64,000 nt of DNA from a candidate division WOR-3 bacterium (lineage in GTDB: Bacteria > Hydrothermota > Tepidihabitantia > Tepidihabitantales > Tepidihabitantaceae): NCBI GenBank assembly GCA_965649295.1, contig CBFGKH010000006.1, forward strand, positions 32,001 to 96,000. Reading direction: 5' to 3'. Of this stretch, positions 15,001-18,000 are shown piece after piece. Each line of letters opens with the position of its first letter. The stretch's first letter is position 1. The position numbers were made by a program.

Positions 15001-18000
15001 GACCTTGGTGCCGAGCTTGGTCTCTTTCTTTTTGAACCTTCCCAGCCCTGGACCGGCCTCCGCAAGCCGCTGCGGCTGCTCGACTATACGATTGCCTACA
15101 GCCCAGAGCAGTTCGAGCTGCTCTATGGCAAGTTCTTTCAGACGTTCGGCAAAGGACTGGCCCTGCGTGCCTATGCCGATGACGATTTCCGCCACTATAA
15201 GAGCCTGCACGGCCTACGCGGCACTGCCCATTTACCGTTTTCGACCGACATTGTAGTATTGGGCGGCCGGCTGCGCGAAATATTCTTCCAAGAGAACACC
15301 TACAAACTGCTGAATGCGGCTGACACCGGGTTCCAAGTTGTCGGCGCCGACCTTGAATCGCGGCCTCAAGACTGGCTGGGTTTCGGCGGACGTTATGTTC
15401 GCATCAATCGCGACTCGACCAAGGACCCGACACCGAAGGCTTTTACTGAACTATTTGGCGGCAATCTCGCCACGACCCTTGGGCCGGTTGACCTCTACGG
15501 CGAATACTGCCGCCGGCTTGGCACAAGACCGGGCATTGGCGGCCGGGAGACCGGCTACGGACTCTATCTGATCGGCACTGCTGCCTTTTCTGGTTACTCG
15601 CTGCTCGGTGAGTATCTCGACTACTACAACCTTGCCTTCCCGACCGGCACCTATCACTTCAACGACCCACCCACCCCAATCAAGTCCGGCGTAGCGCTGA
15701 ACCGGGGCGAAGATGAGCGCGGGTTTAGCATCGGCGCAACCGCCACCCCTTGGAGCACGCTCTATCTCGAAGCTGACTACGGCCGGCTGTATCGCCACAA
15801 AAATGCCGACGCTGGCGCAGTCGAGTGGGAAGGCAAAGCGCGCTACTCAGTGGGAGCGGACTGGACGTTTGAGGCAAAGTTCAATCATATGGTTCAGGAG
15901 AATGTTGAGCTGCACGTGCTCGATCGGGTTACTGATAAACCGACGATTCATGTCAACTATCTTCTCGGCGAGCACAGTTTTGCCCTCGAGGCCGAGTACA
16001 ATTGGGTCTATGAGGAACGCGACGACACGCCCGGTCGGGTAGCCGACACGATGCGCTATCACGAAACAGCAGTTGCCTTGAGCTACGGGTTCGGGGAAGC
16101 GCTGCTTTTCACTGCCGGCTGGCAAGGGGTGGACATGAAGCTGGACCGTCGCTACGCTGGCCAGCAGTCCTGGCCGATGTTTGAGGTGGTCTGGAATATC
16201 AACGAGCAGAACGTCCTGCGCTGTCGGATTGGCGCCGAGCGCGGTGGCTACACCTGCTCTGGTGGCGTCTGTCGGTTTGAATCGCCGTTCACTGGCGCCA
16301 AACTGCAACTTATCAGCCGGTTCTAGTCTTTGGACAGGTGACAGTATGAGGCGAAGAATCACATTTGTCGTGCTAGCGGTAGTCGGGGTTGCTGCCATCA
16401 TCCTTGGCATCCGGTTCGGCGACCCCGAGACAATTCACCGCTTTGCGGCCCAGATATGACTATCCTGCATGGGGCTCGTGTAGCCCACGAATGGCGGTAA
16501 CCAATGGCTAAGCGTCGAATCGCTCCACACCGCATCGTCCAGGTCCTCTTCACCGTCGCCATCAACAGCTACATCCTGGCCTATGTCCAGCAGAAGGTGC
16601 TGTATCAAGGCGTGCTCAAGTCAATCCCCCAGCCGGTTCTCAACTGCTACGGCGGCCCGCTCTCGGTCTTTGCCTGTCCGATTGGCTCTACTCAGCAGAT
16701 GATTGGCCAGCACATTGTTCCCTGGCTGCCGCTGGGGATTTTTGTGGTGGTCGGTGCGTTTGTCGGTCGGGCTGCGTGCGGCTGGCTCTGCCCGCTCGGC
16801 CTGTACCAAGACCTGCTCTACAAGCTCCGGGTTGGGCCCCGGGCCAAGGCCAGACGCTGGCTCACGTTTGGCGTGATTGCCACAATCGCTGCTGCTATCA
16901 GCGCGGCGCTGGTCATTTTTGTCCGTCTCCCGGCTCTCAAAGTATTTGGCTATGGCTGGCTGCCCTTCACTCTGGCTGTGCTCCTCGTCGCCATTCGGGG
17001 CAAACTTGCCCTGCCCGCCCGGGTCTGGCTTGGAGGTTGGCTTGCCGCAATCGGACTTGGCCTGCTTGTCTGGTTCAGGTTCGAACCAGGGTTTGGCGTT
17101 GTGACTGCTGCAATCGGCATGGTGGTGCTCGGGCTGGCCGGCCGCTGGTTTGCCGCAGTGGTGGCGGCTGTTGCTGCGTTTGTGCTGACGTCAGTGGGGC
17201 CGGCGTTCGCGATCGGCCCGCTTTCAGGAGTGGCACTCCGGCTGGTGCTAGTCGCGGTCGCGCTAGGTCTGCCGCTGCTGCTTGATGTACTTCTTCGAGT
17301 CTCGCTGCCGTCGAGCCTCCTCAAGTTTGCGTTCCTAGTCCTGATTGCGGGCGTGGTGGCGTATGTCACTGCCGAACCCTGGTTCTGTAAGCTCTGTCCG
17401 CACGGCACGTTCGAGGCCGGCATCCCGCTTGTCCTCTGGGACCCAGTCAATGCCCTGCGCGGGCTGGTCGGCTGGCTCTACTGGGTGAAGATTGGGCTGC
17501 TGCTGGTGCTGGTCGTTGCCGCCATCGCTATCAAACGGCCCTTCTGTCGGATTATCTGCCCGATTGGCGCCATCTATTCGGTCTTCAACAAAGTAAGCCT
17601 GCTCCATTTGAAAAAGACCGAGGGCTGTACCAACTGCGGGCTCTGCCAGCGCATCTGCCCGATGGACATCGAGCCGCAGCGCGCTCCAAATCAGCTCGAG
17701 TGCGTCCGCTGTTTTGAGTGTGCTTGGCGCTGTCCCCGGTCGGGCCTGAAGATCCGGGTCTAGCCCACCATTGCCGGCGGCCTCGCCCTGGCTACAATTG
17801 TGCCCTTGAGAAAACCAGCATGGCTTCGTGCCCGTCTTGCTGGCGGGCAGCAGTTCGAGCAAGTGAACGAGCGGCTGAACCGCTACGGTCTGCACACGGT
17901 CTGTTCGCAGGCGCGGTGTCCGAACCTGGCCGAGTGCTGGAATAGCGGCACCGCCACTTTTCTTATTCTCGGTGATACCTGCACCCGCCACTGCCGATTC

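Follow-up and report, generated by a model that had tools for sequence, protein, structure and literature searches.

Membrane proteins of the NapH type, built on Fer4_5 units, exchange electrons with the quinone pool (NapGH), and redoxins of the TlpA/ResA type normally act as reductants. The CD1871A family (NF040920), i.e., peptides of approximately 40-50 residues with a CXXC motif near the C-terminus, is named but unstudied, and our literature search found no mention of either the family name or the accession. In a 2026 list of 119 selenoprotein families, the UxxC families are mostly thiol oxidoreductases, as given in the main text and table of that source (PMC13188914). The bacterial SECIS (bSECIS) consensus stated there calls for an apical loop that lies 16-37 nt 3' of the UGA and has a G in the first two loop positions, and NF040920, CD1871, Omp28, DUF6029 and Fer4 are all absent from the same main text and table.

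Here, we describe a gene cluster from a candidate division WOR-3 bacterium (order Tepidihabitantales, family Tepidihabitantaceae). The cluster lies in the window, i.e., the whole stretch of 64,000 nucleotides that was analyzed, and includes a 45-residue peptide gene with an in-frame UGA, directly upstream of a gene for a membrane polyferredoxin. The best explanation of the locus as a whole, to which we assign a probability of roughly 55%, is that the peptide is a single-pass membrane selenoprotein that serves as the small subunit of the polyferredoxin in an outward relay. The features are as follows, in window coordinates:

13471..14259, + strand: Omp28-like protein, which opens the cluster; its motif T-E-U-A-Y-C holds a second in-frame UGA (13606-13608)
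14292..14834, + strand: TlpA/ResA-like exported redoxin (AhpC-TSA fold, motif C-V-N-C), best NCBIfam matches ResA, StoA and DsbE
14752..16326, + strand: DUF6029 porin-like outer-membrane barrel, whose 3' end is 20 nt short of the peptide gene; translation probably starts at a later ATG
16346..16483, + strand: 45-residue peptide gene, with ATG at 16346, TGA at 16457-16459 and the stop TAG at 16481-16483 (included)
16457..16459, + strand: in-frame UGA, putative Sec38, aligned with TGC/TGT in 33 relatives that share the tail
16471..16487, + strand: SECIS-like hairpin, with 5' arm 16471-16476, loop CGUGU 16477-16481 and 3' arm 16482-16487
16504..17763, + strand: Fer4_5 membrane polyferredoxin of 419 aa, the proposed partner (Pfam Fer4_5, 50.1 bits against a cut-off of 22)
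17800..18693, + strand: lipoyl synthase LipA, a conserved downstream neighbor

Translated with TGA as U, the 138-nt peptide gene reads MRRRITFVVLAVVGVAAIILGIRFGDPETIHRFAAQIULSCMGLV, i.e., an N-terminal MRRR, a single hydrophobic helix (approximately residues 5-22), a linker and the tail I-U-L-S-C-M-G-L-V. This translation of 16346-16483 bears out the preliminary description of the locus, which had read a 45-residue transmembrane peptide with a U-x-x-C tail and the TGA inside the gene; its proposal of a tiny selenoprotein that occurs in Sec and Cys forms is likewise supported, with one hydrophobic helix, a (U/C)xxC tail and two copies in the genome. The second copy, an uncalled paralog, lies where that description had put it (C1:320351-320488, minus strand) and has the claimed tail, SSGI-U-IPCMGLGK. 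A six-frame scan of the whole 2.28-Mb genome for the tail motif returned these two copies only, in agreement with the earlier pattern scan. The neighboring genes also match the contexts claimed for both: the window copy stands in the order Omp28-like UxxC gene, TlpA-like redoxin, barrel, peptide, Fer4_5, and the C1 copy in the order Omp28/MAM, Omp28, a 218-aa gene, peptide, a TusA+DsrE protein, SelD. In the databases, the peptide appears as truncated hypothetical proteins of 37-38 residues (23 of 23 close hits). Gene callers systematically end it at the UGA.

Within the order, where all counts are inflated by kinship, 61 of 66 genomes contain a match to the peptide (E <= 1), as do all 43 of the 43 genomes of the family; the family figure had been reported before, but the order figure then given was 55 of 66, presumably under a stricter threshold. 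Motif and HMM together identified 89 peptide genes in relatives: 56 contain a single in-frame TGA, and the other 33 are Cys forms; the division into Sec and Cys forms stands, but the counts replace the earlier 55 with TGA and 28 without. Orthologs align along their whole length in 60 of the 66 genomes, and the gene order barrel-peptide-polyferredoxin is found in 60 of the 66 (44 Sec and 16 Cys). SelB is present in 61 of the 66, Cys-form families included, so the presence of the machinery does not by itself account for the use of Sec. In the window's family, a single genome (G064) has the Cys form; it lacks a SelB match, as do two fragmented Sec-form genomes. A scan of contigs with the order-peptide profile and one strict tail pattern gave eight loci, seven from uncultured bacteria, several of them on contigs that also belong to the set of relatives, and one from Thermodesulfobacterium.

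The most constant neighbor is the polyferredoxin. It lies directly 3' of the peptide in 49 of 49 type-A (barrel-peptide-Fer4_5) loci and in 12 further loci, and its ORF starts 7-144 nt past the peptide in 39 of the 49, those with a cleanly placed start. The peptide gene of Thermodesulfobacterium hydrogeniphilum runs into the start of Fer4_5, and in a sample from this second phylum, Fer4_5 is downstream of 22 of the 24 resolved peptides, eight of which are Sec forms. The preliminary description had emphasized an Omp28 partner. This linkage is real: in relatives, 22 loci have an Omp28/MAM gene that lies no more than 146 nt downstream of the peptide, where the earlier claim was of a small gene within 100 nt of the 600-aa Omp28/MAM gene in at least 19 relatives. 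It is, however, a secondary setting, limited to a single family (23 genomes) of the order, and Fer4_5 is the neighbor that recurs in 60 of the 66 order genomes and in 22 of 24 cases elsewhere. The genome encodes one Fer4_5 protein; accordingly, the C1 copy is without an adjoining polyferredoxin gene, as are the type-B copies of relatives. Upstream of the peptide, the barrel is found in 49 of 49 type-A loci, plus further loci, and the TlpA-like redoxin precedes the barrel in 24 type-A loci, which by their coordinates are all those with a flank long enough. Among the 82 Omp28-like matches listed in the family, 45 have an in-frame TGA and 37 do not. LipA follows Fer4_5 in 23 loci and may be functionally unlinked to the cluster.

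The polyferredoxin has ten predicted helices, two Fer4_5 units, i.e., helix plus CX3CP (residues 77-110 and 330-365, with the CX3CP cysteines at C92/C96 and C348/C352), two C-terminal 4Fe-4S motifs, and the Cys pairs C48/C58 and C295/C298. Its sixteen cysteines are all invariant in 21 sequences from two phyla. In the AF2 model (mean pLDDT 73, below 50 at the Cys motifs), placing the ferredoxin end in the cytoplasm puts C48/C58 and C295/C298 in outward loops, and these outward pairs end in C-P-x-G. A search of the PDB by sequence matched the ferredoxin end alone (E 1e-4 and weaker). The NapH/MauN model TIGR02163 matches the C-terminal part only, with 44.3 bits against 213, and there are no NapG, NapA or NosZ genes near the window cluster. 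We consider it likely that the peptide binds this protein. When the window Fer4_5 protein was modeled, using custom alignments, with a stand-in peptide, i.e., a natural Cys-form ortholog from another genome of the family, the complex scored 0.60 (runs of 0.60, 0.59 and 0.62), compared to 0.00 for the best of three controls. This score is graded weak: the mark is reached by 116 of 157 solved complexes and by 2 of 215 mismatched pairs, and passing scores of 0.60 or less comprise just 18 of those 157 complexes and both of the mismatches. Contacts agree in at least 97% between runs, and the partner pLDDT is at least 77.

The mechanism that we propose would begin with SelB, which would decode UGA-38 as Sec under the guidance of the stop-spanning hairpin 11 nt downstream; the peptide would then be inserted N-in, C-out as the small subunit of the adjoining Fer4_5 polyferredoxin. 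The relay would consist of the following four steps: (i) electrons would enter via the pair of 4Fe-4S motifs on the cytoplasmic side and the inward-facing CX3CP motifs; (ii) they would pass to the outward-facing Cys pairs of the polyferredoxin; (iii) the Sec38-Cys41 selenylsulfide of the peptide would be reduced; (iv) the peptide would reduce the exported TlpA-like redoxin and, via the redoxin or directly, the Omp28-like (U/C)xxC envelope proteins. We infer the topology, the binding, the direction of electron flow and the substrates from gene order, charge distribution and the one weak stand-in complex prediction. As to charge, the N-terminus is MRRR and the flank after the helix is acidic or neutral, and the family consensus is alike. 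An outward reductive thiol/selenol relay is, on balance, a tentative proposal, for which we see somewhat less than an even chance. The cluster contains no match to the CcdA/DsbD reductases (PF02683); the only DsbD_TM match in the genome is a conventional CcdA/DsbD-type protein elsewhere (C7:105494-106120), so a second reductive route is not required.

There is a smaller chance, perhaps the odds of a minority opinion, that the polyferredoxin is the partner as proposed but that the role of the (U/C)xxC-M tail is to handle a metal or to complete a metal cluster, with no disulfide being passed. The tail would then belong to a chaperone of a thiophilic (copper-like) metal or to a reductase subunit like CcoG, or else it would supply two ligands of an outward Fe-S site. 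A CxxC beside a Met recalls metal-binding motifs, and the tail consists of C-x-x-C followed by Met or Ile-Gly; the partner shows weak, partial matches to CcoG (TIGR02745, E 8.8e-7, 28.2 bits against 316.7) and to Fer4_18, and the C-P-x-G ends of its outward Cys pairs resemble the cluster-binding CX3CP. Conversely, the operon that would house this metal site holds a TlpA-like thiol-disulfide redoxin and Omp28-like proteins with thioredoxin motifs, thiol oxidoreductases dominate the UxxC families listed in the main text and table of PMC13188914, and neither a metal transporter nor a metal sensor was seen in the cluster.

It is improbable that electrons flow in the opposite direction, i.e., that the peptide oxidizes exported thiols, as DsbB and VKOR do, and delivers the electrons via the polyferredoxin to quinone or to a cytoplasmic acceptor. 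The genome, rated 100% complete, yielded neither DsbB nor VKOR, and the electron trade of NapH-type Fer4_5 proteins with the quinone pool would suit such a path. However, the cluster has no DsbA-like gene, its redoxin is of a kind that normally reduces (with ResA, StoA and DsbE as the best NCBIfam matches), and Sec in UxxC motifs is typical of reductases. The n-region and h-region layout of the N-terminus would also suit a signal peptide, the cleavage of which would release a free periplasmic or secreted selenopeptide of ~22 residues, e.g., a carrier or a modified peptide; this is very unlikely, given that the hydrophobic stretch of ~18-20 residues has no A-x-A-type site before the conserved G-D/E, that the helix is retained in all 107 aligned Cys forms, and that no maturation enzyme is conserved next to the peptide save LipA, a housekeeping enzyme.

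Comparative evidence makes it almost certain that UGA-38 is read as selenocysteine and that the peptide is a real selenoprotein. Among 67 distinct peptides of the order, U38 (or C), C41 and G43 are invariant, and the tail U-L-S-C-M-G-L-V is nearly so. The UGA position is TGC or TGT in the Cys-form relatives, with an identical tail. The seven codons 3' of the UGA are conserved at the protein level and vary synonymously: in 38 distinct Sec-form stretches, Leu is CTA in 6, CTC in 3, CTT in 9 and CTG in 18; Cys is TGC in 25 and TGT in 13; and Gly is GGC in 20, GGG in 9 and GGT in 9. The genome carries the full bacterial set, i.e., tRNA-Sec (C5:88305), SelA (576 bits) and SelB (345 bits), both over their cut-offs, and SelD, which has a U of its own.

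With Sec eight codons from the end of the peptide, the hairpin reaches across the stop codon into the intergenic spacer; in the window copy, the 5' arm covers the last base of Met42 and the codons Gly43-Leu44, the 3' arm overlaps the TAG stop, and five of the six pairs form. In both copies, its distance from the UGA is 11 nt and the true stop lies within it; the stop-spanning position had been described earlier, with a distance of 14-15 nt. The distance from UGA to loop is 17 nt in both copies, the loops are CGUGU (window) and CGGGAAAU (C1), and G is the second loop base, a geometry that fits the bSECIS consensus as given in PMC13188914. Over 55 sequences, pairing is possible in 96.1% of cells, compared to 85.8% in shuffles, and the covariation score of 0.320 exceeds that of shuffles (0.129; equalled in 0 of 500) and of slid controls (0.103 at most); for example, pair 24-34 is CG in 21 sequences, GC in 21 and UA in 11. 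All six pairs are present in 46 of the 56 distinct UGA forms but in 0 of the 19 Cys forms, and the mean MFE is -10.2 kcal/mol for the former and -1.4 kcal/mol for the latter. The stability of the hairpin alone is no better than that of shuffled sequence (z of 0.25 for the window copy and -0.38 for the C1 copy), and Rfam at E <= 10 gave no SECIS family over 16300-16600, only one chance-level snoRNA match; hence, the case for a SECIS is a comparative one. That the UGA is a true stop, with a 37-residue product followed by an RNA element (for instance, a terminator or a signal that couples translation to the polyferredoxin gene), would agree with the 37-38-residue forms that alone come from gene callers and databases (23 of 23 close hits) and with a hairpin 17 nt ahead of the next start codon, but it is scarcely credible in view of the L-S-C-M-G-L-V kept after the UGA by synonymous changes, the identical in-frame tail of the Cys forms, the restriction of the hairpin to genes in which the codon is UGA, and the complete Sec machinery.

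Based on profile matches and linking intermediates, the peptide is very probably a homolog of CD1871A-type peptides. A caveat in the preliminary description, that it may be just the Sec form of such a peptide, turns out to be the right filing. With U read as C, NF040920 matches the window peptide over profile positions 1-37 of 38 with 24 bits (E 2.7e-5), below the curated cut-off of 32 bits; at 45 residues, with U38-x-x-C41 near the C-terminus and U aligned with Cys, the peptide has the size and motif of the family. The homology is carried through intermediates: 35 of 67 order peptides match NF040920 at E <= 0.01 (best 6.1e-7), the order-peptide profile, run against 1.84 billion proteins, retrieves 207 representatives (E <= 0.001), and 49 of 107 full-length Cys forms match NF040920 at E <= 1e-7, one of which is named 'CD1871A family CXXC motif-containing protein' by NCBI. 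The peptide would be the Sec form of a widespread family of ~45 residues, with a TM helix and a C-L-S/E-C-I/M-G tail, that includes the CD1871A family. One further protein (P0077, 161 aa) is a fused form, in which the peptide is joined to a domain with a second CxxC; it has no match in Pfam and was left out of the case made here. Another match of the order profile (P0039, 886 aa) was rejected as a repeat-protein false positive. A PDB search by sequence with the peptide gave chance-level photosystem small subunits only, and a query of the protein atlas with a natural Cys-form relative yielded nothing beyond 'hypothetical protein' clusters, all below 0.9.

If this reading is true, a peptide of 45 residues would be among the smallest bacterial selenoproteins, and the Sec form would be an addition to the catalog, being missing from the 2026 list of 119 families as given in the main text and table of PMC13188914. 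The placement of Sec would point to the leading residue of the CxxC tail as the one that does the work in a widespread micropeptide family. The close association with a NapH-like polyferredoxin, whose invariant Cys pairs are predicted to lie on both membrane faces, provides a concrete, testable hypothesis and suggests a non-DsbD transmembrane redox route in anaerobes and uncultured lineages. In its broadest form, which we regard as speculative and doubtful, the peptide and the polyferredoxin would constitute an undescribed, iron-sulfur-driven and CcdA/DsbD-independent inner-membrane route with a Sec catalytic center on a 45-residue subunit; this route would feed the envelope (seleno)protein network of a candidate phylum (the TlpA-like redoxin and the Omp28-like UxxC proteins), together with a dedicated outer-membrane barrel, and its two-gene core would do the same, with Cys or Sec, across several phyla.

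Compared to known systems, the peptide shares with the CD1871A family a length of ~45 residues, a single hydrophobic helix at the N-terminus and the closing tail C-x-x-C-(I/M)-G, and differs in that its first Cys is, in all likelihood, selenocysteine and that its score is under the cut-off. Similarly to the bacterial UxxC redox selenoproteins (Trx-, Grx-, DsbA- and TlpA-like) in the main text and table of PMC13188914, it has a UxxC motif, Cys homologs and a hairpin just after the UGA; unlike those families, it has no thioredoxin fold but a bare membrane helix and an eight-residue tail. The partner resembles proteins of the NapH/MauN/NosR/CcoG type in its two Fer4_5 units and C-terminal two-cluster ferredoxin domain, whereas six inserted helices and the additional invariant Cys pairs of its predicted outward loops set it apart. 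Finally, as in the systems of CcdA/DsbD with TlpA/ResA/CcmG, reducing power would be carried across the inner membrane to a TlpA-like redoxin encoded in the same operon; this likeness is functional only, with no homology to CcdA/DsbD, and the membrane part here consists of a Fer4_5 iron-sulfur protein and a micropeptide.

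The two genes for the 45-residue peptide, with TGA read as selenocysteine (U), are located as follows.

Window 16346-16483 (+): peptide gene, window copy, with ATG start, in-frame TGA at 16457-16459 and TAG stop at 16481-16483; product MRRRITFVVLAVVGVAAIILGIRFGDPETIHRFAAQIULSCMGLV
G000:C1:320351-320488 (-): peptide gene, second copy of the same genome, on contig C1; product MRRLAFVFLLAAGLALLVLGTVRDQWATVHQVSSGIUIPCMGLGK

A Shine-Dalgarno-like GGTGA precedes the ATG of the window gene, and its product consists of a basic N-terminus, a single hydrophobic helix, a brief linker and a U-x-x-C tail. 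When the entire genome was scanned in six frames for the helix-plus-tail pattern, no copies other than these two were returned. All 23 close matches in public protein collections are 37-38 residues long, i.e., truncated forms, and where they are named at all, the name is 'hypothetical protein'.

The prediction that the window peptide is a real selenoprotein, with UGA read as Sec, is well supported, because four independent lines of sequence evidence point to it: conservation of the tail, the existence of Cys forms, a hairpin tied to the UGA, and the Sec machinery. In 67 distinct peptides of the order, C38(U), C41 and G43 never vary, and conservation is 90% or higher at I37, L39, S40, M42 and L44. 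Past the UGA, 38 distinct stretches of Sec forms differ by synonymous codons, i.e., CTA 6, CTC 3, CTT 9 and CTG 18 for Leu39; TCC 25, TCG 4, TCT 4 and TCA 1 for Ser40; and TGC 25 and TGT 13 for Cys41. In some relatives, TGC or TGT occupies the UGA position and is followed by the identical L-S-C-M-G-L tail; the resolved peptide genes of the relatives comprise 56 UGA forms and 33 Cys forms. The genome encodes tRNA-Sec, SelB, SelA and a Sec-containing SelD. A context preference around the Sec codon was also observed: all 38 distinct Sec-form stretches have ATA as the codon ahead of the UGA (window 16454-16456), and Cys forms have ATA 7, ATC 4, ATG 4, ATT 1, TTG 1 and CTT 1 there.

The 6-bp stem of the hairpin begins 11 nt 3' of the UGA; its 5' arm comprises the final base of the Met42 codon together with the codons for Gly43 and Leu44, and its 3' arm shares bases with the stop. 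Across 55 sequences, 96.1% of the hairpin cells are paired. Where the wobble position of the Gly codon pairs with the nucleotide that follows the stop codon, C-G and G-C each occur in 21 sequences and U-A in 11. None of 500 shuffles attained the covariation score of 0.320, and slid controls did not exceed 0.103. All six pairs are present in 46 of 56 distinct UGA-form sequences (mean MFE -10.2 kcal/mol) and in 0 of 19 Cys forms (mean MFE -1.4 kcal/mol). The geometry, with 17 nt from UGA to loop and G as the second loop base, agrees with the bSECIS consensus as quoted in a 2026 review of the prokaryotic selenoproteome (PMC13188914). It should be noted that stability of the single sequence above that of shuffled sequence was not found for the hairpin of either copy, and that Rfam gave no match to the hairpin region.

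The preliminary description had cautioned that the peptide may be just the Sec form of CD1871A-type peptides, and this caveat was borne out. With C in place of U, the peptide matches NCBIfam NF040920 (CD1871A family CXXC motif-containing protein) alone, across profile positions 1-37 of 38, at E 2.7e-5 and 24 bits, below the 32-bit cut-off; 35 of 67 order peptides match this model at E<=0.01. A profile built from the order's peptides and searched against 1.84 billion representatives found 207 proteins at E<=0.001. About 38 of the best 150 of these stop exactly at profile position 37; these are Sec forms that gene callers have truncated. Among the 107 full-length C-x-x-C forms taken into the alignment, 49 match NF040920 at E<=1e-7, and one carries the NCBI name 'CD1871A family CXXC motif-containing protein [Treponema berlinense]'; the relatives from the order itself bear the name 'hypothetical protein [candidate division WOR-3 bacterium]'. 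From its own NF040920 match and the profile matches that link it to this model, we therefore place the peptide, by sequence, as a divergent Sec-bearing branch of CD1871A-type peptides. Another match of the profile, the 161-residue P0077, continues past the helix and a C-L-S-C-L-G tail into an additional domain, which holds a second motif, C-L-S-C-P. Pfam gave no match to this protein, which may be the peptide naturally fused to an exported redox domain.

The window copy lies in a gene order (type A) of Omp28-like gene, TlpA-like redoxin, DUF6029 barrel, peptide, Fer4_5 polyferredoxin and lipoyl synthase (LipA).

Window 13471-14259 (+): Omp28-like gene, 262 residues, first of the cluster, with in-frame TGA at 13606-13608 (motif T-E-U-A-Y-C)
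Window 14292-14834 (+): TlpA-like redoxin
Window 16504-17763 (+): 419-residue Fer4_5 membrane polyferredoxin, the only Fer4_5 protein of the window genome
Window 17800-18693 (+): LipA, encoded downstream of the polyferredoxin at 23 loci within the order

Type A is present in 60 of the order's 66 genomes, with Sec forms in 44 (42 of the window's family and 2 of f4) and Cys forms in 16 (f1 1, f2 9, f3 3 and f5 3; f1-f5 are other families of the order). The barrel ends 3-130 nt upstream of the peptide in 49 of 49 type-A loci, and the polyferredoxin frame starts 7-144 nt past the peptide in the 39 loci with a cleanly placed start, the script having placed it upstream of the peptide's end in the other ten. 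The Omp28-like protein, which has no Pfam match of its own, is a candidate second selenoprotein of the operon: among the matches listed in a family-wide search, 45 of 82 hold an in-frame TGA and 37 none. The C-terminus of the barrel (window 16180-16326) closes with a Cys pair, G-G-Y-T-C-S-G-G-V-C-R-F. Elsewhere in the window, an AhpC-TSA (peroxiredoxin/redoxin) match at 38681-39028 (+) lies inside an open frame of 489 residues that contains a single in-frame TGA, and may be another selenoprotein redoxin.

In type B, the peptide gene lies at most 146 nt upstream of an Omp28+MAM gene of about 600 residues, with no polyferredoxin gene alongside; this arrangement is confined to 23 genomes of the window's family (11 Sec, 12 Cys). 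The C1 copy has Omp28/MAM, Omp28 and 218-residue genes on its 5' side and the following genes on its 3' side.

G000:C1, locus L008, 6353-7387 and 7419-8270 (-): TusA+DsrE two-domain protein and SelD (U at residue 14), directly downstream of the C1 peptide

In Thermodesulfobacterium hydrogeniphilum, the gene of a 44-residue Cys peptide overlaps the start of a 292-residue Fer4_5 gene. Matches occur in 24 of 81 sampled genomes of its phylum, with TGA in 10 of 26 matches. Of the 24 resolved peptides, 22 have Fer4_5 downstream, and eight are Sec forms with the tail U-L-S/A-C-I-G-V-G. At one Desulfobacterota locus (L121), a TusA/DsrE-like match, not Fer4_5, adjoins the peptide.

Sixteen Cys of the polyferredoxin are shared by all of 21 sequences that represent two phyla. 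The Pfam Fer4_5 matches fall on its two CX3CP motifs (C92/C96 and C348/C352), further pairs are C48/C58-P and C295/C298-P, and the C-terminus carries two ferredoxin motifs. Its AF2 model has ten helices (mean pLDDT 73, low at the Cys motifs). Many relatives have orthologues of about 535 residues (e.g., loci L010-L018; protein P0183 and others), with an N-terminal extension of about 115 residues that is missing from the window's protein. If, as expected, the window's polyferredoxin has its KRR N-terminus and its ferredoxin end in the cytoplasm, the CX3CP motifs would be inward-facing, and outward loops (29-73 and 290-324) would hold the two additional pairs. The peptide is predicted to be N-in, C-out, because its N-terminus is basic and its C-flank acidic or neutral, which would put Sec38/Cys41 on the side of the outward Cys pairs and the TlpA-like redoxin. 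Complex prediction paired the window polyferredoxin with P0032, a natural Cys-form type-A orthologue from another genome of the window's family, encoded just upstream of that genome's own Fer4_5 gene. Support was weak: the score was 0.60 (best of 3 controls 0.00). Of 157 solved complexes, 116 reach the mark, as do 2 of 215 mismatches; just 18 of those 157, along with both passing mismatches, do so at a score <=0.60. Contact agreement between runs was at least 97%, and partner pLDDT at least 77.

Thus, peptide and polyferredoxin might form an outward, iron-sulfur-driven reductase that electrons leave through the selenylsulfide of the peptide; we infer the binding, the electron direction and the substrates, and the overall mechanism is attractive but unproven. 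Counter-points are the CcdA/DsbD-type protein encoded elsewhere in the genome and the lack of an adjoining polyferredoxin gene at type-B copies. DsbB and VKOR were not found in the genome, so that the pair may, with lower probability, have an oxidising role instead.

A literature search returned no paper naming 'CD1871A' or 'NF040920'. The list in the PMC13188914 review has 119 families, and its main text and table do not contain NF040920, CD1871, Omp28, DUF6029 or Fer4. The hypothetical selenoproteins DG, DW and DF, as presented in the accessible part of the deep-Sep paper, have motifs other than that of the peptide; they are assigned other NCBIfam models in the review's table, and these models do not match the peptide. 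The eight selenoprotein families of the Haft 2022 preprint, as far as its accessible text goes, do not include a description of the peptide. Within a family that has a name but has not been studied, the peptide represents a new Sec variant.
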